Assembly (NCBI GenBank): GCA_021654395.1
Contig: AP024486.1
Coordinates: forward strand, 720,001 to 752,000
Direction: 5' to 3'
Length of the DNA: 32,000 bases
Source: Candidatus Saccharimonadota bacterium
Lineage (GTDB): Archaea; Micrarchaeota; Micrarchaeia; Micrarchaeales; Micrarchaeaceae
Shown in pieces: positions 2,515-31,024 of the stretch. How positions within the stretch are numbered: the first letter of the stretch is position 1; each line of letters begins with the position of its first letter. The notes beneath the pieces are model-generated. The model ran no database searches and was not told where the DNA came from. It was given only the letters and a program-made list of their open reading frames with translations. The position numbers and the translations under genes were made by a program.

Positions 2515-3411
2515 TCAGGCTCTTATGCGACTAGAATGGCTTATAATTGCTTCTCTATCTAATCGATTACTCTCTTCATTAAGCCCATAAACTTCTTCAA
2601 GTAGCTTATTCAACTCGTTGCGAAGTATATTATTTATATATGATATATCCATATCCGATAGATCCTTTATACTAATAGATAGGTCATGATACCTATTAAG
2701 CTCTCTTTTGATTGTGCTTCTATCTATATATCCTGTTGTAATGTATCCTACTTGTGTCTGTGTGTTACTGCTTATACTATTTGAGCTATTAGTATACCAT
2801 GTTTTATATTGTACTTCACTGCCTTTATTAATACTATATGTTAAGTATGGCGAGCTTATGATAACCATAGTTCTATTTGAGTTAATCCCATTACTCTCTA
2901 AATTTTTATAAAGTTCATTAAAGCTACTAAAAAGATCGTTTAAGCTTAGCTTATACTGAGATAGTCTATCTATAAACTGCTGCATTACTTTAGATATCTG
3001 ATTGTTATATACTGCGCCGCTTGCTACAATCCTTAATGCTTGTATAAGTAATTTAGATGCAGCAAGCCCTAGATCTGCATACTTCTTTAATCTTTCTATA
3101 TTCTCTTTTGTATATAATTGATCTAGACGATCTGCCTTACTTTCTATCATCTCTCTTAGATCATCATATATCTTGTTATCTGAGCCGTCATCTTTATTAC
3201 TTGGCTCTAAGATAAAGGAGTTTATCATAGTAGAGCAATATACTATCGAATATATGACAGAGAGATTCTGCCTTAGATAGCCACCACTTCTATCTTCTAA
3301 TCTTTTTATAGAGACTTTAATTAACCAGTCAAGCTCCTCTAGATCCTCGAACTCGATGGTCTTCCATAGGTCGCCCTTCCCAAATGATATCTCTTTAAGT
3401 TGCTTATCCAT
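2515..3411 (-). CDS. hypothetical protein (helical N-terminal half, Ser/Asn/Thr-rich middle, no TM segment)
   Basis: A long ORF with host-like codon usage. I recognise no family motif. Confidence 0.5.
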   Translation of the reverse strand: MDKQLKEISFGKGDLWKTIEFEDLEELDWLIKVSIKRLEDRSGGYLRQNLSVIYSIVYCSTMINSFILEPSNKDDGSDNKIYDDLREMIESKADRLDQLYTKENIERLKKYADLGLAASKLLIQALRIVASGAVYNNQISKVMQQFIDRLSQYKLSLNDLFSSFNELYKNLESNGINSNRTMVIISSPYLTYSINKGSEVQYKTWYTNSSNSISSNTQTQVGYITTGYIDRSTIKRELNRYHDLSISIKDLSDMDISYINNILRNELNKLLEEVYGLNEESNRLDREAIISHSSRIRA

Positions 3412-7876: not shown

Positions 7877-7925
7877 ATAGATCATCTAAAGATTATGATT
7901 TAATATTTATAATAATTTAGATTCT

Positions 7926-8456
7926 CTATCTTGAGCCTAGTAGATCATCTTTAATGCTCTCGTTTATCACATACTTCTTGTATATTCCATCCTTATACTC
8001 CTTTATTATGCCTTTACTTAAGAGACGCTTTATTAGTCTATGAACCTTTACCTTGTTTAAGCCAGTTATCTGAGCTAAGCCCTTCTGAGTCATTCCATTA
8101 CTGTTTATTATATAGCGAAGTAATAGATACTCTTCCTTATCAGTAAATCTTTTAGCTATACTCTCTATACTGCTATTTATCTTATCTTCAGACTTGGAGC
8201 TATAGCTTACTCTAAATATATTTAAGAGAAGTCTGCCATTATATATAAGCATAAAGCCTGCTATAAATGGAATTATAATTCTAAAAACTATATTAAATGT
8301 TGTTAGATATACATCCTCTACAGTATGGATACCATTCTTTATCGTTATATAAACTGCTATAACTCCATAAACGGCTGATATTATTAAAAGTATTAAGCCT
8401 ATGCTTATCGATACTATAGCTATATTAAAGATATGCCTTTGAGACTGATCCTGCAT
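7926..8456 (-). CDS. membrane-anchored winged-helix (MarR/ArsR-like) DNA-binding protein
   Basis: Two N-terminal hydrophobic segments (IAIVSISIGLILLIISAVYGVIAVYI and FRIIIPFIAGFMLIY) precede a C-terminal HTH (MTQKGLAQITGLNKVKVHRLIKRLLSKGIIKE). Confidence 0.55.
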   Translation of the reverse strand: MQDQSQRHIFNIAIVSISIGLILLIISAVYGVIAVYITIKNGIHTVEDVYLTTFNIVFRIIIPFIAGFMLIYNGRLLLNIFRVSYSSKSEDKINSSIESIAKRFTDKEEYLLLRYIINSNGMTQKGLAQITGLNKVKVHRLIKRLLSKGIIKEYKDGIYKKYVINESIKDDLLGSR

Positions 8457-8553
8457 ATAATAAGCACTATTATTAAGCTGTTACTTCTTAAATAAGTATA
8501 TAAAAGAGTTAAATAATTAAGCTTTATATATTAAATTATATCTTGTGATATAT

Positions 8554-8853
8554 ATGGATAACCTCTTGATTAAAGAGAAGCAGGCGAATCTGCTGTTCGT
8601 CCTTATGAAGAGGAATAAGGGAATGTCAGTATCAGATATATCTAGAGAGACAAGAACAACATATGTGCATACATCAAATCTACTGAAAGAGTATGAGGCT
8701 TTAGGCCTAATAAAAGCAGAGAAGCATGGAAAGACAAAGTTTATAGTAATAACAGAGAAAGGATTTAAGATAGCGCAGCTACTAGATGAGGTTAAGAATC
8801 TAGTATACAAGCAGCAGGACACAGATCAGAGCAATGAGATACAGCAGCAGTGA
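8554..8853 (+). CDS. small winged-helix transcriptional regulator
   Basis: Contains MSVSDISRETRTTYVHTSNLLKEYEALGLIKAEKHGKTKFIVITEKG, an HTH plus wing. ATG 8554 is preceded by GTGATATAT. It is preferred over the antisense ORF 8517..8822, which is Cys/Ser/Phe-rich and looks non-protein-like. Confidence 0.6.
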   Translation: MDNLLIKEKQANLLFVLMKRNKGMSVSDISRETRTTYVHTSNLLKEYEALGLIKAEKHGKTKFIVITEKGFKIAQLLDEVKNLVYKQQDTDQSNEIQQQ

Positions 8854-8857
8854 TATG

Positions 8858-9268
8858 TTATAATGCCTTTATCTCTATATCTTTTCTTATCTCTGATTCT
8901 ATAAGATCCTTATTGCCTAATGGATGCCTCATTATATTTAATGCAATCTTAAAGCTTCCTTCCTTGATTGAAGGTGATGGAAAGACCTCAAAGCTTATCT
9001 CTTTCTTCTCATTTACTTTTATATCCCCAATCTCAAACTCTCTTGTCTTATCAACTCCTACTGTCTGACTGAATGATAGCTCTTCTGGTAGGGCCGCCTT
9101 CATAGATAGCAGCAGATCCTTATCTGTCTCATTCTTTATTGTTACCTTAACTAATACAGAGCCGTTCTTATCTTTAATATTTAGATGATATGGAATTAGC
9201 TCATAGCTAACTATAAGACCTCTACCGCTCTTATTCCTGTTGCTAGAGAAGATATCAAGTATTCCCAT
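8858..9268 (-). CDS. hypothetical protein (predicted all-beta, soluble)
   Basis: An ORF with host-like codon usage and no recognisable motif. ATG 9268 is preceded by GTGAATATA. Confidence 0.45.
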   Translation of the reverse strand: MGILDIFSSNRNKSGRGLIVSYELIPYHLNIKDKNGSVLVKVTIKNETDKDLLLSMKAALPEELSFSQTVGVDKTREFEIGDIKVNEKKEISFEVFPSPSIKEGSFKIALNIMRHPLGNKDLIESEIRKDIEIKAL

Positions 9269-9350
9269 TATATTCACTAATTAGTTATTTAAAATTCAAT
9301 CTTTTTAAAAATTATCTTAATTAAGTAAGAGCGATAGACTCTTGATTAAG

Positions 9351-10547
9351 ATGAAGCTGCTTATAATGGATACTGGATCCTTCTTCGATATTGGTGGAGC
9401 AGAGAAGGATACTGCAGATCTCTATAGATATCTAAAGTCAAAAGGAGATATAGAGCTTTATCTATATGGAGATCTTAGTAAGCTAGGAGTATATGACTGT
9501 ATAAAAGATATTAATAGCGTTAAGATAGAGGATCTTAACCTTATAATAATAAACTCTATAAAGGATGTCGTTACTTTAAAAGGAGTTGGTCTAGATAAGA
9601 TAAAGGCCAAGCTTATGCTTATAGATAGAGGAGATCTAATAGTTCATATGCATAGATCTCCATTAAAGAGATTTATATCGCGTATATTTGATATAAAGGA
9701 TATAAGCAATCCAGAGAGCTATAATCAGAGGCTAAAGAGTATTACATCAAAGAGCAGGCTTATACTATTAAGAGAGATTAGAGACTTCCTATCTAAAAGC
9801 TATAATATATACCTTTTTAGAAGTATAATGAATAGAATAGATGTATATATTGCTATAAATGCTACGCAGATGATGCTTGCTGAGAGATACATAAAAAGAG
9901 CTAAGAAGATCTACCAGCCGATTGCACCTCATAAAGAGTTCAGAAAGCTAGAGATAAGCAAGGATTACGAAGGAGCTATATATGTTGGGAGATTAGAAGA
10001 GACTCAAAAGAGAGTCAGCTTTATTATAAAAGGCATAAGGAGAGTTATAGATAAGCATGGAGATCTAAAGGATAGAGAGCTTTTGAGAATAATAGGGGAT
10101 TATAATAAGAATGACGGTCCCTATTATAAAGAGCTTGTAAGAAGGCTATCATTAGAGAAGAATATAAGATTTATTGGAGCCTTATATGGAGACGATCTTG
10201 TTAGAGCCATAAACAACTCTGGATTTATAGTATCTGCATCTAAATGGGAGAGCTTCTCTAGGAACTTTATTGAGGCTATGGCCTGCGGTATACCAGTACT
10301 AACAGATACTAGAAATAATGTATTAATAAATTATAATCCAGAAGAGCATCTTATAAAGGATGGATATAACGGTTTAATCTATAAGTATAATTGCATAGAT
10401 GACTTTGCAGATAAGTTCTATCTAATGCTTAATAATAAGCAGCTAAGAGATGAGATGGCAGATAATGCATATAAATTTGTTAAAGAGAGATTCGATATAG
10501 ATAAGAATAGAGAAGAGCTATACAGTATAATAAAGAGCTCTCTTTAA
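9351..10547 (+). CDS. glycosyltransferase, GT4 / group 1 (GT-B fold)
   Basis: The C-terminal half has the GT1/GT4 signature: YVGRLEETQKRVSFII...ASKWESFSRNFIEAMACGIPVL (the E-x7-E region). Confidence 0.8.
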   Translation: MKLLIMDTGSFFDIGGAEKDTADLYRYLKSKGDIELYLYGDLSKLGVYDCIKDINSVKIEDLNLIIINSIKDVVTLKGVGLDKIKAKLMLIDRGDLIVHMHRSPLKRFISRIFDIKDISNPESYNQRLKSITSKSRLILLREIRDFLSKSYNIYLFRSIMNRIDVYIAINATQMMLAERYIKRAKKIYQPIAPHKEFRKLEISKDYEGAIYVGRLEETQKRVSFIIKGIRRVIDKHGDLKDRELLRIIGDYNKNDGPYYKELVRRLSLEKNIRFIGALYGDDLVRAINNSGFIVSASKWESFSRNFIEAMACGIPVLTDTRNNVLINYNPEEHLIKDGYNGLIYKYNCIDDFADKFYLMLNNKQLRDEMADNAYKFVKERFDIDKNREELYSIIKSSL

Positions 10548-10551
10548 TCTA

Positions 10552-13056
10552 CTATCTTATCTGAGAAGCGTTGTATAATGTAACGTTAATGAGCCTTATA
10601 GATGAGCTCTGATTTACTATCGGCTTTGTAAATCCTACTAGAGCGCAGTTCTGAAGTGTATCGTTATACGATCTAAATAGGGATAAGAATGTTCCTCCAT
10701 TAGTAGCTATTATTGTATGTCCTCTGCAGTTTATATCAACATTGCTTACATTATCTGCTGTAAAGCATGCTGCTCCGTATGTATATATATTATCTGAGTC
10801 TAATGTGTAGTACTGCGGTGCTTGGAACTGCTGGCATGTTAATGTATAGTTTGTATATGGCAGAGAAGCCATCCATATGCAGTTAAGCTTACTAGCTCCA
10901 TAGTCTACTCCAGGAAGATTGGAGTTTACTGCTGAGCTATTTCCATAGCATGCATAGCTATATGAGCTTGTAACTAAGAAGTTATTTCTGGTTATGTTGT
11001 TGTTAATAGAATTATTTACTATTATTCCATATACCACTCTGTCTCCTCTATTATTAATTACCTTGCTGCTGTATGTCTTATTAAGTATTATGCTATAGTT
11101 TACATATCTAAAGCTGTTATTATATATATCTGCGTTGCTTATTGAGTAGCCAAATAATCCGTATCTATCATTACTAAAAGAGCTGTTTGCAACAGTAAGA
11201 TTAGTTATACTATTTAAGTTAGCTCCATAGACTAAGCCGCTTAGATTATCATTGTATATACTTAATCTTCTTATATTGCTTGCGTTTACTCCATATCTGA
11301 AATCATTTATATTACAGCCATCTATAGTTATATTGCTCAATCCGTTCTTTATCTGTATAGCAGGCTTTCCAGATATCTTATAAGATGATATATATAGATT
11401 ATTACAGTTTAATCTTACATTACTTGCTTCTATATTTATACATGTGCTTCCATTATCGATCAAAGAGCCTAATAGACTATAATTAAATGGTCTTGTTATT
11501 GTTATGCAGCTTTTTAATGGGATAAAGTCTAAGTTTGGTGAGATATGCTGCTTACATGTTGCCCAGTAAGCATTTGTAAATCCGCATGAAACTTTATAAG
11601 CAAGATTGCTACTTATATTTGCAGAGTTGACTGATGCATATATATCAAATGCAGTATTATTCTCTAGATTGCTATTCTGAATGTACATATTATGCGTATT
11701 AATCGTCTCTAATCCATATGTATTATTAAAGGAGTTTAGATTGCTTATAAAGCTGCTGTTACTATTATTAAGCAGTAGAGCCACATAGTTGCTATAAGCA
11801 GTAATATTAGTAAGATGCAGGTATGAATGATTTGATAGTATACTTATATTATTTGAAGAGAGCTGTAGATTGTTACCATTAAACTGCGAGTCATTTAATA
11901 GATATAATCCATATCTACTGCTATCTATCTTACAGTTTTCTAAAGATATATTGCTTAAGCTATTGGCATATACTGCATAATATGCATTAGATATTGAGTT
12001 ATTGTTGCAGTCTATCTTTACATTACTTACTTTAATGTATATGCATGTTGCATGTGAGCTATTTACCTGCTCTGGTGTTAAGTAGTTAAGCATATCTATA
12101 TTAGAGCTTATGCTATACACTCCAGGACTTACTATGCTTCCGCAGCTGTCTATATTGCTCAATAGATGCAATGAAGTTATATTAAATAGCTTATTAACAC
12201 CTCCGCATGATATAAAGTTGCAGTAAGACTCGTTATAGCATAGGTTAAACTCAGCCTTATTGCTTGGTGCGTATCTGCTTACACCGCTGCAGTATAGCGA
12301 TTGATTTAATGAAGAGAATACATTATGCAGGAAGAGATTTCCTGTTGAGTTATCTATATAAGCAGATCTTATAAATGAGAATCTTATTGTATTATTTCTA
12401 AATACATTGTTATAAGATCTATTCATGAATAGACTTCCAAATGCAGATACTCCTTTAATTAATGTATTATATGATATATTTGAGCTGTTAACTCCATCTA
12501 GAGCTAGATTTGATATATAATTATTAGTAAGATTATCTCTATATATTTTAGAGCTCTTTACATTATTAAGATATATACCATATGAAAAGTTATCTATGAC
12601 ACAGTTACTTATTGTTATATTGCTCTCGTTGCTTGCGTATACTCCATATGTAAATGGAGGTACACCCTGAAATGGGCCTTTACCAGATATAGAGTTGTTA
12701 TCGCATGTTATATCTACATTAGGACTCTTTACTATTATACAGCTGCTTACTGCAGATACACCTATACTCTTATTTATAACATATCTACCAGAGCTAGTTA
12801 TATTAGAGCAGCTTGATAGATAAGTAAAGCCTAGTGGCTTACTAATTATAGTAGTTGTAGACTTAGTAATAGCATGCTTAGATGATATAGATAAAAGAAC
12901 TGCTATAATAGCAACTATAGCTATAGCAGCTATTATACCTATAAGCTTAGTTGGTCTCTCCTTTTGAGGTGGCGGGAGCTCATTCTGGAGCTCTTGATTT
13001 ACCTCTGGCCTCTCGAATCTTTCGTTACTATCGCTGCCTCCAGAGCTATTGTTCAT
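10552..13056 (-). CDS. membrane-anchored, heavily N-glycosylatable surface protein with parallel beta-helix (PbH1/CASH, NosD-like) repeats
   Basis: A charged N-terminal tail is followed by one TM segment (LIGIIAAIAIVAIIAVLLSI) and about 770 aa of Asn/Ser-rich sequence. The pattern N-x-x-I-x-N-x-x-x-G(I/V/L) recurs roughly every 22 residues. There are four Cys-framed module starts and more than 40 N-x-S/T sequons by my manual count. Confidence 0.7.
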   Translation of the reverse strand: MNNSSGGSDSNERFERPEVNQELQNELPPPQKERPTKLIGIIAAIAIVAIIAVLLSISSKHAITKSTTTIISKPLGFTYLSSCSNITSSGRYVINKSIGVSAVSSCIIVKSPNVDITCDNNSISGKGPFQGVPPFTYGVYASNESNITISNCVIDNFSYGIYLNNVKSSKIYRDNLTNNYISNLALDGVNSSNISYNTLIKGVSAFGSLFMNRSYNNVFRNNTIRFSFIRSAYIDNSTGNLFLHNVFSSLNQSLYCSGVSRYAPSNKAEFNLCYNESYCNFISCGGVNKLFNITSLHLLSNIDSCGSIVSPGVYSISSNIDMLNYLTPEQVNSSHATCIYIKVSNVKIDCNNNSISNAYYAVYANSLSNISLENCKIDSSRYGLYLLNDSQFNGNNLQLSSNNISILSNHSYLHLTNITAYSNYVALLLNNSNSSFISNLNSFNNTYGLETINTHNMYIQNSNLENNTAFDIYASVNSANISSNLAYKVSCGFTNAYWATCKQHISPNLDFIPLKSCITITRPFNYSLLGSLIDNGSTCINIEASNVRLNCNNLYISSYKISGKPAIQIKNGLSNITIDGCNINDFRYGVNASNIRRLSIYNDNLSGLVYGANLNSITNLTVANSSFSNDRYGLFGYSISNADIYNNSFRYVNYSIILNKTYSSKVINNRGDRVVYGIIVNNSINNNITRNNFLVTSSYSYACYGNSSAVNSNLPGVDYGASKLNCIWMASLPYTNYTLTCQQFQAPQYYTLDSDNIYTYGAACFTADNVSNVDINCRGHTIIATNGGTFLSLFRSYNDTLQNCALVGFTKPIVNQSSSIRLINVTLYNASQIR

Positions 13057-13080
13057 ATAAATCAATTACTATAGAAAGAT

Positions 13081-13719
13081 TTATTTATCATATCTTAAAA
13101 GATATATGTTCTTATAGAATGGCTTACCATCAATATACTTACTAAACTTGTATGAGACCTGTGGCTTTATCTTTGTATGATTTGCAAAGAACTCGTTCAT
13201 TATCTTCTTACTGCTAACGTATACATCTGCACCATTCTTAAGATACTCTATCTTTGATACAAACTCTCCTTTTAGATTTACAAATCTTAGTAGTCTTTTT
13301 ATTATGACCTCTGTAGTTGTTACACTTGCTCTTATCTGTACTATAGCTTCATAGTAGCTACTCTTCATTAAGGAGCATCTCTTGCAGATTGTCTGCTTAT
13401 AATCTAATACTATCTTAAGCTTTGTATATGCTTTACTGTTAAAGCTGCTTATCTCTGCATAGAAGCTATCATCAGCTATATCTATAATCTTTATGCCCTT
13501 CTTCTCAAGTTTGCTGTTTATTATGCTTTTTAGTATGGCAGAGTCTTCCTTATAAAACTCATCCTTATACTTAACTCTACCACAGCTCTTGCATCTATAT
13601 ATCTCTATATTAAGATCCTGCTCTCTTACATTTCTCTTTATATAGCAGTCTATACATATATTATCTATAAAATCCTTTTCATCGCTTGAAGCGTTACAGA
13701 AAGGACAGTATATAGCCAT
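13081..13719 (-). CDS. NMD3-family zinc-ribbon protein (archaeal 60S-subunit-factor homologue, short form)
   Basis: Has four Cys pairs (CPFC, CIDC, CKSCG, CKRC) and the NMD3 block CKRCSLMKSSYYEAIVQIRA. ATG 13719 is preceded by GTGATCATT, which contains the secD stop codon TGA. Confidence 0.65.
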   Translation of the reverse strand: MAIYCPFCNASSDEKDFIDNICIDCYIKRNVREQDLNIEIYRCKSCGRVKYKDEFYKEDSAILKSIINSKLEKKGIKIIDIADDSFYAEISSFNSKAYTKLKIVLDYKQTICKRCSLMKSSYYEAIVQIRASVTTTEVIIKRLLRFVNLKGEFVSKIEYLKNGADVYVSSKKIMNEFFANHTKIKPQVSYKFSKYIDGKPFYKNIYLLRYDK

Positions 13720-16537: not shown

Positions 16538-17245
16538 ATGAAGCTATGCGTTATAATACCAACATATAATGAAGCAGATAATATTAAAGACTTAATAAGA
16601 AACATAAAAAGCAGCATAAGCGATATTGATATAATTATAGTAGATGATAATAGTCCAGATAAAACTGCTGAGATCGCTAAAAATGAAGGGGCTATTGTCT
16701 ATATAAGGCAGAGTAAGCAAGGCATAGGAAGCGCGCTTAGATTTGGCTTAGATAAGGCATTAGAGCTAGGGTATGATTACGCTGTAACTATGGATGGAGA
16801 TTTTAGCCACGATCCAATATACATAAAAGATATGCTAAGATATGCAGATAGCTACGATCTAGTATTAGGATCTAGATATACAAAAGGCGGCTCCATAAAG
16901 AACTGGCCTTTCTATAGATTTCTTATAAGCAAATCCGCGAATCTTGTTGCTAGAGTTATACTAGGCTTGTATAGCATACATGATCTTACAACAGGATATA
17001 AGCTCTACTCTAGAAAAGCTATAGAGGCATTACTAATTAACTGCAGCATGGCAGAAGGATACGAGTTTCAGGTCTGCTCTGTATACATGATCGTAAGAAG
17101 CGGATTAAAAGTAATAGAGGTTCCAATAGTATTCACAGATAGAAGAAATGGTGTTAGCAAGCTAGGTAAGATGCAGATCTTTGAATGGATATTGTATCTA
17201 GTAGAGCTATCAAGAAAGATGCCAAAGCTCATAAACAAAAAGTAA
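16538..17245 (+). CDS. dolichyl/polyprenyl-phosphate mannosyltransferase-like GT2 (Dpm1 family)
   Basis: Shows MKLCVIIPTYNEADNI...IIIVDDNSPDKTAEIA...VTMDGDFSHDP...GSRY...TGYKLY, the canonical Dpm1/GT2 motif series (DxD, DGD). Confidence 0.85.
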   Translation: MKLCVIIPTYNEADNIKDLIRNIKSSISDIDIIIVDDNSPDKTAEIAKNEGAIVYIRQSKQGIGSALRFGLDKALELGYDYAVTMDGDFSHDPIYIKDMLRYADSYDLVLGSRYTKGGSIKNWPFYRFLISKSANLVARVILGLYSIHDLTTGYKLYSRKAIEALLINCSMAEGYEFQVCSVYMIVRSGLKVIEVPIVFTDRRNGVSKLGKMQIFEWILYLVELSRKMPKLINKK

Positions 17246-17296: not shown

Positions 17297-18295
17297 TTGA
17301 TTTACTTGGACCCATTTACAACTAAATATCTAGCAATAGGATTAGTAATAGGATTATTAGTAGGTGCTCTAGTAGCATATATTGGATTCCATACAGCTTC
17401 TACGAATACTAATGTAAAGTTTATCTATCTAAATAGAACAATAAATAAAACAGTAATAAAAGATGTCTACTCTAACAGCAGCTTATTTGGAAAGATAAGC
17501 TCTGGATTTTACGATAATAATGTAGTTATGCTTATATATACTAAGAATTATACTTGCACTCCAGGCATATCAGCATCTATGTTAAACTCTACTGTAGACT
17601 CTTTAACTAAAGGATGTGAGATAGGGATCTTAAATAATGCAACGTACAACTCTAGTGTAATGAAGGCCTATGAGCTAATACCTGCTTATACAGGATTTGG
17701 TGTATTCGGCTTCTATGCTATAGGAGCAGATCAGTACGGATTCCCTCAGTTTTCTTATAATGGTAGTGTGTATAACATAGTTACAAGCTGCGGTGCATCT
17801 GGCTCTAGAGCAGATTGCAATTATACGCCGTCTTATGTCTATTCGCCTTTCTTTAGCAGTCTTGAATCACTTGTAAGCAATCATGGTATTGGGGGCTTAC
17901 CTAAAGGAGTTTTACCATTACCTTCAAGCGACTATCTATTAACAAGCGTAACAAATAGATCTAACCCAATAAATATAGTTGCAGTATTAGTATTAGATCC
18001 GAATATAATGCCAGATCCAATAACAGGAGAATGCTCTAGAATTGTCCAGAGTAATCTAAGTAATCCAATAGCAGATTGCTTAAACTCCACAACTGCTCTA
18101 TACAATGCCTTACAGACAAAAGACTCTGCGGTTGCTGCTGCAAATGCAAACAATATAGTATGGAAAGACTTAGGAGAGCCAGAGTATCAGGTTATAATCC
18201 CAGGCTTGACATCTCCATCAGAGCTTGCAAATATAACAAATACAAATATAATACTTTACTTTAACGCAACAGCCCAGTATCCACCAGTGTCTTAA
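17297..18295 (+). CDS. membrane-anchored extracellular protein, N-x-S/T-rich, function unknown
   Basis: Has an N-terminal TM segment (YLAIGLVIGLLVGALVAYIGF), many sequons and several Cys residues. There is no ATG near the 5' end, so the start is TTG at 17297 or TTG at 17306 (TTGATTTAC precedes the latter). Confidence 0.5.
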   Translation: MIYLDPFTTKYLAIGLVIGLLVGALVAYIGFHTASTNTNVKFIYLNRTINKTVIKDVYSNSSLFGKISSGFYDNNVVMLIYTKNYTCTPGISASMLNSTVDSLTKGCEIGILNNATYNSSVMKAYELIPAYTGFGVFGFYAIGADQYGFPQFSYNGSVYNIVTSCGASGSRADCNYTPSYVYSPFFSSLESLVSNHGIGGLPKGVLPLPSSDYLLTSVTNRSNPINIVAVLVLDPNIMPDPITGECSRIVQSNLSNPIADCLNSTTALYNALQTKDSAVAAANANNIVWKDLGEPEYQVIIPGLTSPSELANITNTNIILYFNATAQYPPVS

Positions 18296-23741: not shown

Positions 23742-24806
<1,065 letters not shown>

Positions 24807-25003
24807 TTAATGCATCTCTCTAAAGGCAATTAATCTTTTATTTGTAGTCTAAAGAAATTGTATCATATCTTTATAGATAAAACCAGGAATCTTATTTAGC
24901 TAATGCTTTTAGCTATTATAAGCTTAACAGTATACGAAATTTACTTAAACATATAACTAAAAGTTTAAAAATATTATAATAGATTAATTTATAAAGTGAC
25001 TAA

Positions 25004-25369
25004 ATGTCTGATAGATATACATCAGTAAAAACATTAAAGGAGCTAGTACAAAGGTTCTGCGAAGAAAGAGATTGGGATCAGTTCAATAATGCTAAAGATC
25101 TTGCAATAAGTATAACAACTGAAGCCGCTGAGCTACTTGAGCTATTTAGATTTAAGACAGAAAAGGATATAGATGCAATGTTAAAGGATCCTGTAAAACG
25201 TGAACAGATAGGGGAAGAGCTTGCAGATATATTTTATTCTACATTAAGATTTGCTCAGCGATTCGGATTTGATCTTTCTGATGAATTAAGAAGCAAGCTA
25301 CGTAAGAACGCAAAAAAGTACCCTATCGAAAAAGCTAAGGGCTCTAATAAGAAGTATAATGAGGTGTAA
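25004..25369 (+). CDS. MazG-like all-alpha nucleoside-triphosphate pyrophosphohydrolase (DCTPP1/RS21-C6-like)
   Basis: FCEERDWDQFNNAKDLAISITTEAAELLELFRFK carries ExxExxE, GEELADIFYSTLRFAQRFGFDL carries EExxD, and the protein ends with KNAKKYP. This matches the DCTPP1-type pattern as I recall it. Confidence 0.8.
   Translation: MSDRYTSVKTLKELVQRFCEERDWDQFNNAKDLAISITTEAAELLELFRFKTEKDIDAMLKDPVKREQIGEELADIFYSTLRFAQRFGFDLSDELRSKLRKNAKKYPIEKAKGSNKKYNEV
25361..25366 (+). promoter_or_regulatory. Shine-Dalgarno-like GAGGTG for the HNH gene, embedded in the last codons of the MazG-like gene
   Basis: The sequence reads ...aatGAGGTGtaataATG. The MazG-like stop is at 25367-25369 and the next ATG at 25372, which suggests translational coupling. 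Confidence 0.5.
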
Positions 25370-25371
25370 TA

Positions 25372-26298
25372 ATGACTGAAATATATATAATACCTATTGG
25401 ATCTAAAGAACCTGTAGAAAATATGAATAGAACTTTAATCAATAAAGTAAGTAAGAAAGAGGTAGAGGAGCATCATGTATCCTTGGAATCGCTTGGTATA
25501 ATGGATGATTCAGTAAATATATGGGGACTTATACCAGGTAAGAAGAATAATAAAAAGTGGTCTAGATATAATAACGGCGACTATGTAATATTTGTTCCAA
25601 CAAGATATCCGTTAATAGTAGCACAGATAATAGGCAAGACAGACAGCAAAGATCTAGCAGAGTATCTATGGGGTAGGAATAAAAATGGAGCTACATGGGA
25701 GCATATATTCTTCCTTAAAATAATCTCTTTCTTAGAGAAAGAAAAAAGAGAATTTTTAAGAGAGCTTGGGTATAGAGACAAAGACGTATTAAAAGACAAC
25801 CGAAGAATAACTGAAAGATTTATTAAGGTTTATGGCAGCATAGATAACTTTCTATCAAAGAACTATGAAGACAAAGTTAGCGAAGAAGAGATATCTAATG
25901 ATCTTACTGAAAGCCTAATAGAAAGTATATACAGTAAAGAGGACAATAAAAAGGCTTTAGTAGAGCTAGAGAAGATAATAGAAGAGTCTGAAAAGAAGCC
26001 TGCAGATTATATAGAAGTTAGAGGAAGAAGATTTAAGCGCAAGCAACTATTTGTAGTATACGTAAGGATGAGAGATAATTATAGATGCAGGGCTTGCGGA
26101 TTTAACTTCATTAAGAAGGATGGGAAGCCTTATGTAGAGGTAGCGCATATAGTACCTTTATATAAAGGTGGTTTAGATCATCCTTCAAATATGGTTGCTT
26201 TATGTCCAAATTGTCATAAAAAGTTAGATAAAGGAGACGATAAAGCAAGACAAGAGGTCTTAGAAGCACTGAAGAATGCAGGAGCAATTAAAGTATAA
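25372..26298 (+). CDS. HNH endonuclease with an uncharacterised ~130-aa N-terminal domain and a charged helical linker
   Basis: The C-terminus reads YRCRACGFNFIKKDGKPYVEVAHIVPLYKGGLDHPSNMVALCPNCHKKLD, with CxxC...H-IxP...N...CxxCH intact. The N-terminal block is VNIWGLIPGKKNNKKWSRYNNGDYVIFVPTRYPLIVAQIIGK...ATWEHIFFLK. Confidence 0.8.
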   Translation: MTEIYIIPIGSKEPVENMNRTLINKVSKKEVEEHHVSLESLGIMDDSVNIWGLIPGKKNNKKWSRYNNGDYVIFVPTRYPLIVAQIIGKTDSKDLAEYLWGRNKNGATWEHIFFLKIISFLEKEKREFLRELGYRDKDVLKDNRRITERFIKVYGSIDNFLSKNYEDKVSEEEISNDLTESLIESIYSKEDNKKALVELEKIIEESEKKPADYIEVRGRRFKRKQLFVVYVRMRDNYRCRACGFNFIKKDGKPYVEVAHIVPLYKGGLDHPSNMVALCPNCHKKLDKGDDKARQEVLEALKNAGAIKV

Positions 26299-26417
26299 CA
26301 GTATATATTTTATACTTATAATGTAGATACTGTCCAAAATAAACAAATTTTTAAATCTTATTACTTCATATCCAGATAGATTTAAATATCAGAACAGCTT
26401 CAAATAAGATGATCGGT

Positions 26418-28109
26418 ATGACAACAGTCTCTAAATTAAATTCAGAGGAAAATAAGAGTTCTGATTATGCAACTTTTATACTTAAAGCGGTTCCTGATCT
26501 TAATTATGCGAATGTTAAAAGAGTTAAGATTGCATATCTAGAAGGAGGGTTAGAAGTATATCAGATTGATGATGGTAATCTAAGAAGTTACATGATGCGA
26601 GTGAATGGGGCAGATATTGAATTAACTAGAGACCAGTTCCTCAAGATATGGAATAATACAGCTGCAAAGATAGAGAAGACAGTTTATACGCTACGTACTG
26701 ATAATAATAATGAAGCTATAGAGATACACTCTTACGAAGGCAATTTAGAAGGACTAGTATTGGCTCTAGTGCCAATGAACACTAGAATTGATGAGATCTA
26801 TATAAAGGAGTTATCTAATAATATTATTAATGATGTTAGTAATAACCATACATATGATGATACTGAGCTTGCTAGAGCTGACATTCTAGGATCTTTTAGA
26901 TTAAGAAGAGGGCTTGATCCAAAGCTCAAAGGTATGGATTTTGAATCTGCTGTTAAAGAGATTAAAGAAGAAGTAAAGTTTCTAAATAAAAAATTAAGAA
27001 GACCTGTTGTTATCATAATCGCTGGTGCCTCCGGATCTGGTAAGACAACTTTAGCTTCTATGCTTTATCGCGAAATTCCTCGCTCTGTAGTAATATCAAC
27101 TGATAACTATTATATAGGAATAAAGCGTATGAAGGAGAAAGGTATAGATGACTTTGATCTTCCTGAAGCCATAGATAATGATCTACTTAAAGAGCACATA
27201 CGTGCATTAAGAGAACTTAAGTCAATAGAGATGCCAATCTATAGCTTCAAATCTGGTGAGAGAGAGGGTTATATTAATGTAGATCCGATTAAAGATAATG
27301 AACATATTGAGGCTATAATAGTTGAAGGAATATATTCACTTCAAAGTTTTTCAGAGCTTGGTGACATAAATATCTATATATTAATCACTCCACATGATGC
27401 TAGAATTAGAAGATATGGAAGAGACACAAATAGAACCTCCTGGCCACTGAATGATATAATAAGCTATGAGCTATATAAAGTAGCACCCAAGTTTCCATTA
27501 TACATTATGCCGCAAGAGGCAAGAGCTAATACAGTATTAGAAAACAGATATAATCCAAATAGAGAAGGAGTAGAGCTTATTAAGGGTATTGAAAAGCAGT
27601 TTAAGTTTAAACTATCAGAAGATGATTTAGCTAAGGTATATAGAGCCATTTCTGCAAGCTATGCAGAGATATTAGCAAATTCAAAGCAGATAGATATATA
27701 CCTAAAGATTCCTGAAGGCCATAAAGGAGAGCAGCTAAAGCTGAGAATAGAAGGTGATCAAATAATATTTGAATACAAGTTTGTAGCATATGATGGTACA
27801 AGAAGAAGACTAATGGTACCAATAACAGAGGTTGAGTTTGCACGGCTACTAAGCGAATACAAACAGATAAGTCACATAGTATCAAAGTATAGAACCCTAT
27901 ACTCGATTAATGGAATAAACTTCACTGTAGATAGAGATGTTAGAGTGATAACTTTTAACGATAACATGCAGAAGGAGTGTAGACTTGGAAGCTTTATTGA
28001 GATAAAGAACCCAAAGAGCGATGATGATATAAATTGGATAAAGAAGCTACTAGGTTTAGAGGGTAATCCTATTGAGGATTCATATATAGATCTAGCAGAT
28101 CGAATATAA
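26418..28109 (+). CDS. three-domain fusion: degenerate CYTH-like domain, uridine kinase/PRK-family P-loop kinase, and CyaB/ThTPase-like CYTH domain
   Basis: The N-terminal domain aligns by eye to NeuTTM-type CYTH (FILKAVPDL...KIEKTVYTLR...EIHSYEGNLEGLVLALV). The centre has Walker A IIAGASGSGKTT plus ISTDNYY, FDLPEAIDNDLL, MPIYSF, IIVEGIY and ARIRRYGRDTNR (Udk blocks). The C-terminus has IEKQFKFKL...QIDIYL...LKLRIEG...KYRTLYSINGINFTVDRD...LGSFIEIK...SYIDL (CyaB-like). Confidence 0.75.
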   Translation: MTTVSKLNSEENKSSDYATFILKAVPDLNYANVKRVKIAYLEGGLEVYQIDDGNLRSYMMRVNGADIELTRDQFLKIWNNTAAKIEKTVYTLRTDNNNEAIEIHSYEGNLEGLVLALVPMNTRIDEIYIKELSNNIINDVSNNHTYDDTELARADILGSFRLRRGLDPKLKGMDFESAVKEIKEEVKFLNKKLRRPVVIIIAGASGSGKTTLASMLYREIPRSVVISTDNYYIGIKRMKEKGIDDFDLPEAIDNDLLKEHIRALRELKSIEMPIYSFKSGEREGYINVDPIKDNEHIEAIIVEGIYSLQSFSELGDINIYILITPHDARIRRYGRDTNRTSWPLNDIISYELYKVAPKFPLYIMPQEARANTVLENRYNPNREGVELIKGIEKQFKFKLSEDDLAKVYRAISASYAEILANSKQIDIYLKIPEGHKGEQLKLRIEGDQIIFEYKFVAYDGTRRRLMVPITEVEFARLLSEYKQISHIVSKYRTLYSINGINFTVDRDVRVITFNDNMQKECRLGSFIEIKNPKSDDDINWIKKLLGLEGNPIEDSYIDLADRI

Positions 28110-28146
28110 GCAGCTATTAATTCTTCCATTACATTGTTAAATGTTA

Positions 28147-28171
28147 TTTTTAGATAGTTTCTCTGCTTTTT
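28147..28171 (+). terminator. two oligo-T tracts (TTTTT at 28147-28151 and 28167-28171) downstream of the kinase-fusion gene
   Basis: Archaeal terminators are typically oligo-T runs, and these lie 38-62 nt after the stop at 28109. In an AT-rich genome this evidence is weak. Confidence 0.3.
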
Positions 28172-28243
28172 GAATATTACTATAGAGCTTACATAAAAGC
28201 AGCCGATATAAAACCAAATTAAACCTTAATATCAAAGTAATTA

Positions 28244-28317
28244 CGCTCCCACCGGGATTTGAACCCGGATTACAGGCTCCGCAAGCCCGCGTTCTATCCA
28301 GGTTAGACTATGGGAGC
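28244..28317 (-). tRNA. tRNA-Arg (anticodon GCG)
   Basis: The reverse complement folds as GCTCCCA/TA/GTCT-AACCTGGATA-GAAC/G/CGGGC-TTGCGGA-GCCTG/TAAT/CCGGG-TTCAAAT-CCCGG/TGGGAGC/G. There is one C-A mismatch in the D-stem and one G-U pair in the anticodon stem. No CCA is encoded. Confidence 0.85.
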
Positions 28318-28342
28318 TGATAATATTAATTAGAATGATACT

Positions 28343-28352
28343 GTTAAAAATA
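28343..28352 (-). promoter_or_regulatory. TATA-box-like element upstream of tRNA-Arg
   Basis: The minus strand reads TATTTTTAAC, ending about 25 nt upstream of the tRNA 5' end (28317). Confidence 0.3.
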
Positions 28353-28424
28353 GTAAGCCACAACCTTAATATCTATTAGATAAAGCTTCTTAAAAGATCT
28401 TATACAGATATAAAGATACCTTAA

Positions 28425-28787
28425 TTACTTTATAAATTTAGATAGCTCTTTCTTCATTGATTCTTTATCTAGCGCTATTCCATTAGATCTTGCATAGTCC
28501 TCTATGAGCCTTATAGAGTTAGTGCTGTATCTAGATGCAGCTGATATTATAGCTTTATCTAATGCATCTTTACTAAAATAAAAGGATCTTAATAAAGTCT
28601 TTATTACCTCTCCTCTATCCTTAATTGCAGCTGCTATTAGGCTATTATCTAGATGCTCTCTTATATCAATCTGCTTCTGGCTTAGATCTTCTAGTATCAG
28701 CTTAAGGATATCAGCATAGCCGTATCTAGCTAGCAGGATAATTATATCAGTATCTATATCTTCTATTCTATGGCTGCTATCCTGCAT
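28425..28787 (-). CDS. hypothetical helical-repeat protein (weakly ankyrin-like)
   Basis: Three approximately 33-aa units resemble degenerate ankyrin repeats: IIILLARYGYADILKLILED, SLIAAAIKDRGEVIKTLLRS and KAIISAASRYSTNSIRLIEDY. Confidence 0.4.
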   Translation of the reverse strand: MQDSSHRIEDIDTDIIILLARYGYADILKLILEDLSQKQIDIREHLDNSLIAAAIKDRGEVIKTLLRSFYFSKDALDKAIISAASRYSTNSIRLIEDYARSNGIALDKESMKKELSKFIK

Positions 28788-28992
28788 CTTGCAGATTATC
28801 TCCGCTATCTTCTATTGTGGTAGATGCCTCTCTATGCTGGATCTAATCTTAAGATTAAACTTATTAGCATCCATATACTAAATTTAACAGATAAGCTTAA
28901 TCTAGATTCTGTTTAACATAATTGTATCTTGTGTATATCTTTCTAGATAATATTTTATATTCTAATATATAATCTTATGGCAGCCGCGTCCT

Positions 28993-29697
28993 TTACTTTG
29001 AGCTACTTATCTCTTCTATTGTAGCCTCTGCTGAAGCATACAGTAGATTGTCTATGCTACTTAGATACTGATTAGACTGGTTACTCAAGCTATTTAGATT
29101 TATAACAACTAGAAAGTCTTTATAGACAAAAGCTAATACATAAGACAACCTACGCTGCTCTATAAAAGCAGAGTAGTGGCTAATATTACTATTATTTATA
29201 GAGAGATTAAGCTTACTTACACCTAGATTAGAGGAGTTAATGCTGCTAATAAGACCATAATATAAGCTATCTGCTACGCTGCTATTGCTATATCCAGTAA
29301 TAGCGATATCCATATAGTACTTGCTATTTCCTATATATCCTATATATGTATTTAATTGAGAGAAAGTAACATAATTTGCAAGCGTTGTAACTGAAGCAGT
29401 ATAAGTAGAGTTGAGAGAGAAGTTAGCTATGCTTGAAGGTGGTGTAAAGTTGTATACAATCTTATGAGAGCTTGGATTAGCTATATTGAATACTGTCGTT
29501 GTTATAGTTGTTGAGATAGTTGTTGATGTTGTTTTAATACTTGCTTTAGATGTTGTATTATGCAAACTTCTCTGCTGTATTGTTGTATATACTGTTGTTA
29601 AGTTATATGATTTACTAGGCTTATTTATAATTAGATATGCTGCAATTATAACAACTACTGCTACTATTACTGCTGCTACTATCTGTCCTTTCTCCAT
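28993..29697 (-). CDS. membrane-anchored extracellular protein with a Thr/Ser-rich stalk, function unknown
   Basis: An N-terminal TM segment (IVAAVIVAVVVIIAAYLII) is followed by TTSKASIKTTSTTISTTITTT and then a sequon-rich domain. Confidence 0.5.
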   Translation of the reverse strand: MEKGQIVAAVIVAVVVIIAAYLIINKPSKSYNLTTVYTTIQQRSLHNTTSKASIKTTSTTISTTITTTVFNIANPSSHKIVYNFTPPSSIANFSLNSTYTASVTTLANYVTFSQLNTYIGYIGNSKYYMDIAITGYSNSSVADSLYYGLISSINSSNLGVSKLNLSINNSNISHYSAFIEQRRLSYVLAFVYKDFLVVINLNSLSNQSNQYLSSIDNLLYASAEATIEEISSSK

Positions 29698-29736
29698 ATT
29701 TATTTACTTTAATAACAACTTATAAAAATCTTTATA

Positions 29737-29898
29737 TCATTTAACTTCTCTGCTTAAACCACTTTTACATCTTACGCATATATTTAGAGCTGGATCTATA
29801 TGACTCTCGCATGTATATCTGTTGCATATAATACATCTCTTACTCGCTGGTTTACCACAGATATAGCATAAGCTATACAGATTGCTACTCTCCTTCAT
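29737..29898 (-). CDS. small (53 aa) Cys-rich zinc-finger protein, below the ORF-track size cutoff
   Basis: Manual translation gives MKESSNLYSLCYICGKPASKRCIICNRYTCESHIDPALNICVRCKSGLSREVK, ending at TGA (29739-29737). The pattern is CxxC-x7-CxxC-x4-CxxH-x7-CxxC. The start is preceded by the same ATGATGTAT motif seen at other genes. Confidence 0.5.
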   Translation of the reverse strand: MKESSNLYSLCYICGKPASKRCIICNRYTCESHIDPALNICVRCKSGLSREVK

Positions 29899-29987
29899 AT
29901 ACATCATTTAGGATCTTACTATTACTAGTATTATTGCTTTACATATCTATTAGTAATAGCTACTAGATAAAAGGAGAAGTAAACTAT

Positions 29988-30842
29988 TTAGCGCTTCTTG
30001 TACCTAATCGCTTGCTTAATTGTATCTTCGTCTAGAATTGCTGGTAGCTGACCAGAGGATACATACTTATATAATAAGAGCCTAAATGCATTGAATGTAG
30101 TTGAGGATACTATTGCTCCTAATATTATGAATACTGAAAATAGTATGAGGCCTATAGCTAAGAATATTGAGCTATTTAATAAGCCAGATGCTATAGCAGA
30201 TGTTATCAGTACTAAAAAGCCTATTAACATCATTCCAATGCCATAAAGATCTGAATATGCTATTCCGCTGATAGTAGACCCGAATGCCTTTACAAGAGTC
30301 TCAGCACTTTCTTTAACCGCTGATATAGGATCGAGCTTCTTCTCATATATAATTGGAAATGCAAATATAAGGCCTGCCCATAAGGCCATGCCTGCAGCTA
30401 ATCCCAATATTATACGAGATATTCCTCTTAAACGTGATTCAATGATCCTTATTATTAATATAACTGTTGAGTAGAATAATGACCACTTAAGCAGTACAGA
30501 GCCATAATCTTTAGCTTTACTTAATGCTTCGCTTAGAGAGATATTATTACCTTTCAGATGCTCATCGAATGCTATATAGAATGCCATTAGAAAGTAAGCT
30601 GAAGTAAATGAAGATATAACGTAGAATATAAATAGAAGCACTATATAAACTAAAGGGCTAACTCCAGCTTGAGTTGGAGCTTGAGAGATACTAACTATAA
30701 AGAATGATGCTACAATTAGTATGAACTCTAGAATTACAACAATAGCTGACGCTATTGGATATAGAAGCAGCTTCTTATCTTTAAATATCTCTTTCCTTAT
30801 CTTTGATGCAATTCTCCATCCTGCTACTAATCTTTCAAACAT
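29988..30842 (-). CDS. polytopic membrane protein (DUF6159-like), function unknown
   Basis: Begins MFERLVAGWRIASKIRKEIFKDKKLLLYPIASAIVVILEF, followed by about 6 TM segments. The N-terminal pattern resembles the family I recall as DUF6159. ATG 30842 is preceded by ATGATATAT. Confidence 0.5.
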   Translation of the reverse strand: MFERLVAGWRIASKIRKEIFKDKKLLLYPIASAIVVILEFILIVASFFIVSISQAPTQAGVSPLVYIVLLFIFYVISSFTSAYFLMAFYIAFDEHLKGNNISLSEALSKAKDYGSVLLKWSLFYSTVILIIRIIESRLRGISRIILGLAAGMALWAGLIFAFPIIYEKKLDPISAVKESAETLVKAFGSTISGIAYSDLYGIGMMLIGFLVLITSAIASGLLNSSIFLAIGLILFSVFIILGAIVSSTTFNAFRLLLYKYVSSGQLPAILDEDTIKQAIRYKKR

Positions 30843-30924
30843 ATATATCATTACATCTTATCAAACAAAACTTTATAAGTCTTATTAAAGCTCTCGATCT
30901 TTAATAGAGTATCCTTATATAAGA

Positions 30925-31024
30925 CGCCAGGGCTGGGATTTGAACCCAGAAGGCCCACGAGGGACCACACGCTCTCTAGTATGAAACTCCAGGCGTGCGC
31001 GTTACCGGATTCCGCCACCCTGGC
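30925..31024 (-). tRNA. tRNA-Ser (anticodon GGA), class II with long variable arm and a 13-nt intron at the canonical 37/38 position
   Basis: The reverse complement folds as GCCAGGG/TG/GCG-GAATCCGGTAA-CGC/G/CACGC-CTGGAG[TTTCATACTAGAG]A-GCGTG/variable arm TGGTCCCTCGTGGGCCT/CTGGG-TTCAAAT-CCCAG/CCCTGGC/G. The 3-bp D-stem, long variable arm and G73 fit Ser. Confidence 0.85.
30974..30986 (-). other. tRNA-Ser intron (13 nt)
   Basis: There are 20 nt between the anticodon-stem halves CACGC and GCGTG. Removing TTTCATACTAGAG leaves the loop CTGGAGA. Confidence 0.7.

Follow-up and report, generated by a model that had tools for sequence, protein, structure and literature searches.

We analysed the gap between sua5 and a tRNA-Arg(GCG) gene in a 32,000-nucleotide (nt) stretch of contig AP024486.1 (positions 720,001 to 752,000; hereafter the window) from the thermoacidophilic, cultivated DPANN archaeon Candidatus Micrarchaeota ARM-1. 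Three co-directional open reading frames (ORFs), here called genes 1, 2 and 3, fill this gap. We propose, at a probability of about 0.6, that genes 1 and 2 are a two-gene, translationally coupled module for modification-dependent (type IV) restriction, in which a MazG-like pyrophosphatase accompanies a reader-HNH nuclease, and that gene 3 is an unrelated, separately transcribed resident gene that merely neighbours the pair in ARM-1. The pair has the architecture of such a module, with intact catalytic residues, tight operon coupling and an adjacency that recurs at other loci. The original prediction had joined all three genes into one candidate surveillance or antiviral module of foreign appearance.

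Layout and domain structure of the pair

The interval opens after sua5 (23742-24806; Pfam Sua5_yciO_yrdC, 8e-61) and is bounded by the tRNA-Arg(GCG) gene on the minus strand (28244-28317; ARAGORN and Rfam). On the plus strand between them lie gene 1 (25004-25369; 121 amino acids, aa), gene 2 (25372-26298; 308 aa), whose product is identical to ARM1_0764, and gene 3 (26409-28109; 566 aa); both the ORFs and the flanks were as originally described. Two nt separate the stop codon of gene 1 from the start codon of gene 2, and a Shine-Dalgarno-like GAGGTG motif (25361-25366, +) lies inside gene 1, near its 3' end, with 5 nt between it and the ATG of gene 2; this spacing and motif, both of which had been read correctly in the original prediction, suggest that the two genes are translationally coupled. 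An A/T-rich, TATA-like box read from the sequence, TTTAAAAATA (24964-24973, +), is situated about 31-40 nt 5' of the gene 1 ATG and, judged from archaeal promoter architecture, is a putative promoter for the operon of genes 1 and 2. The sigma-70 promoter and terminator scan uses a bacterial model and is uninformative for an archaeon.

The gene 1 product matched the Pfam MazG-like family PF12643 (1.6e-17; 63.9 bits against a cut-off of 27). The mouse and human DCTPP1 structures (6sqw/2a3q) aligned to its full length at 4e-16, or at 3e-25 with a profile, and the alignment took in the C-terminal YP...GS..KY tail. The ExxE...ExxD metal site (E40, E43, E72, D75) is invariant among the partner-linked gene 1 homologues (alignment A2). 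Gene 1 is therefore assigned by homology as a DCTPP1/RS21-C6-type, all-alpha nucleoside triphosphate (NTP) pyrophosphatase of the MazG-like kind with its metal site intact, which upholds the original description. Enzymes of the DCTPP1 type are house-cleaning enzymes that prefer modified (5-substituted) dCTP. DCTPP1 itself is a stand-alone eukaryotic enzyme, whereas gene 1 is the first cistron of a nuclease operon, and the subfamily to which it belongs adjoins several nuclease types.

The gene 2 product had been described as an HNH nuclease joined to a domain of no recognised kind; the HNH part was confirmed, and the N-terminal domain could be refined to a PUA-like fold of the YTH/EVE type. Its C-terminal region (residues 211-308; 26002-26298, +) is a McrA-type HNH (beta-beta-alpha-Me) domain by Pfam (HNH PF01844, 4.8e-10), by the Protein Data Bank (PDB; EcoKMcrA 6ghc, 6e-14, with ScoMcrA and TagI also matching) and by PADLOC, where the type IV model mREase_IV matched at 4.6e-15 along with generic HNH effector models. 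The residues H259, N273 and H282, and the zinc cysteines C239/C242/C278/C281, are invariant in 16 gene 2 relatives (alignment A1). The N-terminal half gave no Pfam match. An AlphaFold2 model built on 16 homologues (mean predicted confidence, pLDDT, 89) places a beta-barrel at residues 1-125 (25372-25746, +), followed by a helical linker, as drawn from the secondary structure of the model, at residues 126-210 (25747-26001, +). Foldseek searches with the barrel returned the YTH-like N-terminal domain of Thermococcus gammatolerans McrB, which binds modified DNA (TgMcrB-N; 6p0f/6p0g, E 2-3e-6, TM score on the target 0.70-0.72), and next the archaeal EVE proteins 1wmm, 2hd9 and 2p5d, THYN1 and YTH domains; ScoMcrA, EcoKMcrA and VcaM4I were also matched by gene 2. 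These matches to YTH-like and EVE folds lead us to describe gene 2 as a PUA-like reader fused to an HNH nuclease. Conserved residues of the reader include W51, G52, L53, F74, W100 and F114 (alignment A1).

A PUA-like reader with an HNH domain is an established architecture of modification-dependent restriction (PMC6765204, PMC7897488), and the modelled layout of gene 2 is the standard one for a type IV enzyme, an activity that its product would be expected to share. The PUA-superfamily-HNH endonucleases treated in those papers (the EVE-HNH enzymes VcaM4I/TspA15I, the SRA-HNH enzyme TagI, EcoKMcrA and ScoMcrA) likewise combine a reader at the N terminus with, at the C terminus, a McrA-type HNH that has a CCCC zinc site. 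Gene 2 differs from them in that its reader is closer to the YTH-like domain of T. gammatolerans McrB than to the EVE domain of VcaM4I, in the 85-residue helical linker between its domains, and in usually having a MazG-like gene in front, whereas those enzymes are described as stand-alone. Type IV enzymes of the PUA-HNH class are thus well known, and gene 2 joins them as a new member, from an archaeon, whose reader is YTH-like by its model; what is new in the pair is a MazG-like partner for a type IV restriction enzyme.

Recurrence of the pair and partners of its MazG subfamily

Contexts were compared for 13 distinct members of the gene 2 family (37-54% identity) from metagenomes, DPANN metagenome-assembled genomes (MAGs) and a Caldisphaera MAG. 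A gene 1 homologue (52-64% identity) lies directly upstream and in the same direction in 8 of the 13; the loci with the pair are ARM-1, L003, L004-6, L013 (Parvarchaeota), L014, L015 and L016 (Micrarchaeota) and L111. No other gene of the window was common to the paired loci (8 loci compared), and therefore the pair alone is conserved. Gene 1 is a conserved accessory, not a chance neighbour.

The neighbourhoods of the gene 2 relatives are mostly of the defence or mobile-element type and are non-syntenic. L010 carries NgoPII restriction-modification (R-M) genes alongside Vsr and an SNF2 helicase, and L007 a C5 methyltransferase together with Vsr, EVE, MORC-like ATPase and PD-(D/E)xK proteins; L111 has an N6/N4 methyltransferase and a Res-like helicase, L005/L006 a solo Cas1, L003 PIN/RHH and ParE genes, and L012 an integrase with Cas6. 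Type II and type III-like R-M genes and toxin-antitoxin genes are among these neighbours. Full-length gene 2 relatives come mainly from DPANN MAGs, with one in a Caldisphaera MAG and others on unlabelled metagenomic contigs. A viral origin of gene 2 was considered and rejected, since IMG/VR held no full-length relative; the idea that the N-terminal extensions of the 391-515-aa relatives are fused MazG domains was dropped as well, since they gave no Pfam match.

Some recurring neighbours are recorded here in their own right. In L005 (5900-8615) and L006 (3654-6369) a Cas1 gene (390 aa) overlaps the MazG start, giving a co-directional Cas1-MazG-HNH string. The large neighbouring ORFs at these two loci, which were searched with a casposon in mind, had no match to PolB or to any other Pfam family, and a casposon there is at most a tentative idea. 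A radical-SAM gene of about 397 aa, which matched DUF1848 faintly, stands convergent to, and right after, the gene 2 homologue at L003 (8924-10114) and L007 (3943-5142; also L008 and L009), and was thus seen with two different members of the gene 2 family, one with MazG and one without it. Genes for MORC-like HATPase_c_3, EVE-domain and NUDIX hydrolase proteins also recur near gene 2 homologues (L007 8114-9598 and 10839-11291; L015 5913-7502; L014 8433-9263; L004 3688-4098).

A metagenome scan with a profile of the partner-linked MazG proteins returned more than 571 gene 1 relatives. Contexts were taken for the best 80 of these (40-62% identity), and 68 of the 80 had enough downstream sequence. 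At 36 of these 68, the gene that comes next in the same direction, in most cases 0-30 nt away, belongs to one family of DUF2075 nuclease-helicases (about 620 aa), in which an N-terminal NERD/PD-(D/E)xK or GIY-YIG nuclease is joined to an SLFN-g3 helicase (PF09848, formerly DUF2075), sometimes with a terminal peptidase S24 domain; in PADLOC this family comes closest to the models PDC-S41, Nhi and AbiO. These MazG-DUF2075 loci include L027 (2892-5122), L031 (4243-6491), L032, L033, L039, L040, L055, L061, L066, L080 and L096. Other partners are a 315-aa protein ending in HNH_2, which aligned distantly to both the reader and the nuclease of gene 2 (hhalign probability 68%), and a homologue of the Bsp6I-type restriction endonuclease; the loci with HNH_2 or Bsp6I partners are L025 (219-1283), L060 (264-1606) and L036 (5656-6618). 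Taken together, the MazG subfamily is encoded just upstream of a nuclease (NERD/GIY-YIG-DUF2075, HNH_2 or Bsp6I) in more than half of the 68 loci. The gene 2-linked and DUF2075-linked MazGs interleave in a neighbour-joining tree drawn without support values. Their interleaving, the partner exchange and the modest co-phylogeny described below point to a combinatorial association, as expected of a defence component and not of a housekeeping gene. No description of the MazG-DUF2075 pairing was found in the literature.

PADLOC-DB v2 holds no named system composed of genes 1, 2 and 3, and to this extent the original view of an undescribed system stands; it falls short in that HNH proteins encoded beside MazG were already noted in 2017. 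These are Group 23 of the His-Me finger nucleases (Jablonska et al. 2017), unannotated bacterial HNH proteins encoded beside MazG-family genes (PMC5714182). Group 23, the one earlier mention of a MazG-HNH adjacency that was found, resembles the pair in this adjacency; it differs in having been described for bacteria only and in that no reader, restriction or mechanism was proposed, the authors having linked it to regulation of the mazEF type. In E. coli mazEFG, as cited from Gross et al. 2006 by way of PMC5714182, an NTP pyrophosphohydrolase within a toxic-nuclease operon modulates the consequences of that nuclease. The likeness to the pair lies in an NTP pyrophosphohydrolase and a nuclease sharing one operon; E. 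coli MazG is a tandem-domain enzyme that acts on (p)ppGpp/NTPs and is encoded downstream of an RNase toxin-antitoxin pair, whereas gene 1 is a single-domain DCTPP1-type protein encoded upstream of a DNA nuclease, with no antitoxin. A further comparison is PUA-Cal-HAD, in which a PUA domain is reported to be fused to Calcineurin-CE and a HAD phosphatase to be required; in a rare variant a MazG-like enzyme is reported to replace Calcineurin-CE and to be coupled to PUA, and fusions of this PUA family to HNH are reported too (bioRxiv 10.64898/2026.01.15.699771). PUA-Cal-HAD and the pair share a PUA-like modified-nucleotide sensor with an enzyme that targets nucleotide triphosphates; here, in contrast, the PUA-like domain shares a protein with HNH, the small MazG is encoded separately and the HAD partner is absent. 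In the searchable papers on EVE/YTH restriction contexts and the McrBC census no mention of MazG was found, and nothing linking MazG to DUF2075, EVE-HNH or type IV restriction was found in the literature beyond Group 23, the PUA-Cal-HAD preprint and DefensePredictor.

Gene 3 and the supposed island

Gene 3 follows gene 2 after a gap of 110 nt and, as the original prediction had noted, stands behind a box: a TATA-like TTTAAATA, read from the sequence at 26381-26388 (+), which precedes the gene 3 ATG by 21 nt. Given this box, gene 3 is probably transcribed from a promoter of its own into a near-leaderless mRNA, and would therefore be a separate transcription unit. In its product a degenerate N-terminal CYTH domain (about residues 18-160) is followed by a P-loop kinase (195-392) and, at the C terminus, by a CYTH/TTM domain (395-560). 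The product matched Pfam PRK (1.2e-17), the NCBIfam uridine kinase (3.7e-32) and, just under the cut-off of 23.2 bits, Pfam CYTH (8e-5, 22.9 bits); its best PDB match was Arabidopsis TTM1 (3e-19), with Foldseek returning 7z66/7z67, the latter at 3e-24. From these matches gene 3 is predicted to be a P-loop kinase of the uridine/cytidine-kinase type followed by a CYTH/TTM domain, and residues 177-561 align to the tandem kinase-TTM module of TTM1. Compared with TTM1/TTM2, gene 3 and about 30 relatives (after clustering at 50% identity) bear an extra N-terminal CYTH, which is degenerate in ARM-1. A word-index homology search, run with a single sequence and with a profile, found only gene 3 itself and weak kinase matches; an exhaustive search found 4,546 relatives, dozens of them 560-580 aa long with the extra N-terminal CYTH. 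CYTH and PRK were matched in 35 of 35 relatives examined, and the CYTH-Udk-CYTH architecture first read for gene 3 therefore holds for the family, with the N-terminal motifs lost in ARM-1. There (26460-26888) SDYATF stands for the consensus EIERKF and ALVPM for AEVEF, and a loop is deleted, so that the ExExK and acidic tunnel residues conserved in 34 relatives are missing; the fold is kept in the predicted model. This domain is likely a pseudo-enzyme domain.

Gene 3 was not found in the flanks fetched for the other 12 gene 2 relatives or for the 80 gene 1 relatives (up to 6-10 kb per side, often less). Three gene 3 relatives sit amid housekeeping genes, without MazG or HNH. The contig of the closest relative, L107 (GCA_027318185.1), lacks the pair, and its positions 6001-10516 correspond to 26409-30851 of the window: a DUF6159 gene lies about 2 kb 3' of the gene 3 relative on the opposite strand, is 46% identical to that at 29988-30851 of the window, and is separated from the kinase gene by genes that differ between the two contigs. 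Because of these housekeeping contexts and this micro-synteny, gene 3 is regarded as resident and the trio not as a unit; of the joint module first envisaged, the adjacency of genes 1 and 2 stood, recurring in unrelated contexts, and the third member did not, as it never accompanied the pair. Gene 3 is plausibly a nucleoside-salvage kinase needed by a symbiont deficient in biosynthesis.

The claim of foreign-looking codons was correct as to the shifts themselves. GAA makes up 52% of Glu codons in the three-gene region and 21% in the rest of the window (p 2e-8), CGN 20% and 6% of Arg codons (p 8e-4), and AAA 42% and 29% of Lys codons (p 0.012). The shifts are not distinctive, however: an equal fraction of A-ending Lys/Glu codons (0.40-0.50) occurs at 2515-3411, 16538-17245, 17297-18295 and 28425-30851, and gene 3, resident by synteny, shares the pattern. 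The G+C content of the region (0.33-0.35) and its G+C at third codon positions (GC3) are normal for the window, and its tetranucleotide deviation (z=1.8) is below that at 10-13.6 kb. Because resident genes share the pattern, the codon shift is not evidence of foreign origin; GC and GC3 are normal and z is 1.8, and none of these statistics was accepted as evidence of horizontal transfer. Relaxed selection in weakly expressed genes fits the codon pattern better than recent acquisition does. As a separate observation, the strongest tetranucleotide deviation of the window (10001-13600, z 2.1-2.3) lies over an 837-aa ORF (10552-13065).

The remaining signs of an island did not survive. Integration at tRNA-Arg was considered and rejected, as no duplication of a tRNA fragment was found, and a 28-nt direct repeat around genes 1-2 (24920 and 26291), tried as an attachment site, was reached in 71 of 300 shuffles, with equal matches occurring between other intergenic regions; thus the region next to the tRNA gene shows no sign of tRNA-targeted integration and no flanking repeats beyond chance. 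Over the 18 kb around the pair, none of the gene calls matched an integrase. The long antisense ORF that had been reported at 27464-28129 resolved into three short ORFs (61-85 aa) that are separate and lie in different frames, and similar ones are found throughout 22-32 kb.

Beyond tRNA-Arg, and on the minus strand, two genes precede the DUF6159 gene: 28425-28787, encoding a 120-aa protein with a weak ankyrin-repeat match, and 28993-29697, encoding a Ser/Thr/Asn-rich protein of 234 aa with an N-terminal hydrophobic segment and no family match. Both genes have the same relaxed codon usage as the three-gene region. A second tRNA, 100 nt long and probably intron-containing (30925-31024, -), was matched by Rfam and not reported by ARAGORN.

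Mechanism, competing readings and meaning

In the mechanism that we favour, the PUA-like domain of gene 2 would bind DNA and flip a modified base into an aromatic pocket, and the McrA-type HNH would then cleave close by. Gene 1 would hydrolyse modified deoxynucleoside triphosphates (dNTPs), e.g., 5-substituted dCTP, to the monophosphate. Modified nucleotides, whether salvaged or made by a virus, would in this way be kept from entering the DNA of the cell, whose genome would then offer the gene 2 nuclease no target; a virus would, moreover, be left without modified precursors. Such a sanitising role is attractive for ARM-1, which is without nucleotide biosynthesis (PMC8784108), because its nucleotides or nucleosides must be imported from methylated hosts, and it would explain why MazG of the same type is placed before other DNA-degrading enzymes.

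Several observations weigh against this proposal. Sanitising is one of several roles that a pyrophosphatase could have, and no PADLOC model matches gene 1. The MazG gene is absent at 5 of the 13 gene 2 relatives, and MazG must therefore be dispensable; conversely, no member of the gene 2 family was found at any of the 80 best gene 1 relatives. Within pairs the co-phylogeny is modest: the Mantel test gave r 0.46 (p 0.04), and a rank correlation for the same pairs was not significant (Spearman 0.24, p 0.22). Partners have been exchanged at least at L016, where gene 1 is 85-87% identical to those of L013/L111 and gene 2 only about 45%. The closest structural match of the reader, TgMcrB-N, is reported, as cited by way of PMC7544203, to prefer DNA with N6-methyladenine (N6mA), and would therefore fit poorly with a dCTP-type partner. 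A Pfam scan found no methyltransferase in 18 kb around the pair in ARM-1; gene 2 relatives lie near C5 methyltransferases (L007, L010) or an N6_N4 methyltransferase (L111), apparently of other R-M systems, and since both kinds stand beside gene 2 relatives, a simple reading of the target as 5-methylcytosine or N6-methyladenine risks self-restriction. Finally, the ARM-1 flanks are housekeeping genes and hold no defence island.

This last point also speaks for a cassette outside defence, that is, a DCTPP1-like sanitiser, a repair or turnover nuclease for the cell's own modified bases and a nucleoside kinase, brought together in a scavenging, genome-reduced symbiont. The missing nucleotide biosynthesis of ARM-1, the wide spread of the gene 1 family as seen in its metagenomic relatives, and the concentration of full-length gene 2 relatives in DPANN MAGs would suit such a cassette, which we nevertheless hold to be quite unlikely: among characterised proteins, those nearest to gene 2 are without exception restriction enzymes, its relatives adjoin R-M systems, Vsr, Cas1, toxin-antitoxin genes and integrases, and the MazG subfamily pairs with nuclease-helicases related to Nhi/AbiO/PDC-S41 and with a homologue of a type II restriction endonuclease. 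The pairing with several unrelated nucleases could also be read in terms of a sensor-effector system, where MazG depletes dNTPs on infection, the PUA-like domain senses a modified nucleotide or DNA, and HNH is a second effector. It would be analogous to the dCTP-deaminase/dGTPase defences and to PUA-Cal-HAD; DefensePredictor lists MazG as a predicted, unvalidated defence domain (PMC13092281), and HAD or NUDIX genes are found near some pairs (L003, L004, L014, L030). Gene 1, however, is a bare 121-aa catalytic domain without a regulatory or sensor part, so that dNTP depletion would be constitutive and harmful; a HAD gene is absent beside the pair in the window and at most loci, and the house-cleaning function known for DCTPP1-type enzymes, with its preference for modified dCTP, points elsewhere. 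We regard depletion on infection as unlikely.

The system of three genes, with pool sanitation and cleavage joined by a kinase/triphosphate-tunnel sensor or effector, appears very improbable to us. The genes are adjacent and co-oriented in ARM-1, the relaxed codon pattern is common to all three, and all would deal in pyrimidine or triphosphate chemistry, where a kinase feeding in salvaged, possibly modified nucleosides might make a sanitiser useful. Against this, gene 3 is missing from the fetched flanks of the relatives of both partners, has a TATA-like box of its own after the 110-nt gap, keeps to housekeeping contexts, with its DUF6159 micro-synteny preserved in a MAG that lacks the pair, and returned weak P-loop matches alone from PADLOC. 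The absence of co-occurrence largely refutes a three-gene system.

A wider view, which we put forward tentatively and consider doubtful as yet, takes the MazG subfamily of gene 1 as a general, hitherto uncharacterised partner of defence nucleases (PUA-HNH, NERD/GIY-YIG-DUF2075 and a type II homologue among those observed) in bacteria and archaea, which would confer metabolic immunity by destroying modified or damaged dNTPs. These would be dNTPs released from degraded foreign, host or own DNA, and their destruction might keep the cell's own genome free of the marks that the partner nuclease attacks, or might starve viruses of modified precursors. If true, self would be discriminated from non-self at the nucleotide pool, instead of by DNA methylation.

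The analysis removes the three-gene island and its supposedly foreign codon usage as a false lead, leaves the gene 1-gene 2 restriction module as a directly testable two-gene candidate, and flags the much larger, uncharacterised pairing of MazG with DUF2075 nucleases in metagenomes. Type IV restriction enzymes are seen as single proteins which, since the modification is missing from the host, can do without a partner for protection. A conserved, putative pool sanitiser placed before type IV enzymes, and before other nucleases at more than half of the related loci, suggests a problem that has gone unrecognised, namely that foreign modifications can end up in the DNA of a cell that recycles nucleotides. 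DPANN symbionts dependent on nucleotides from a host would be the most exposed to it, and a sanitising role for gene 1 would explain why the pair is retained in a 0.8-Mb genome.

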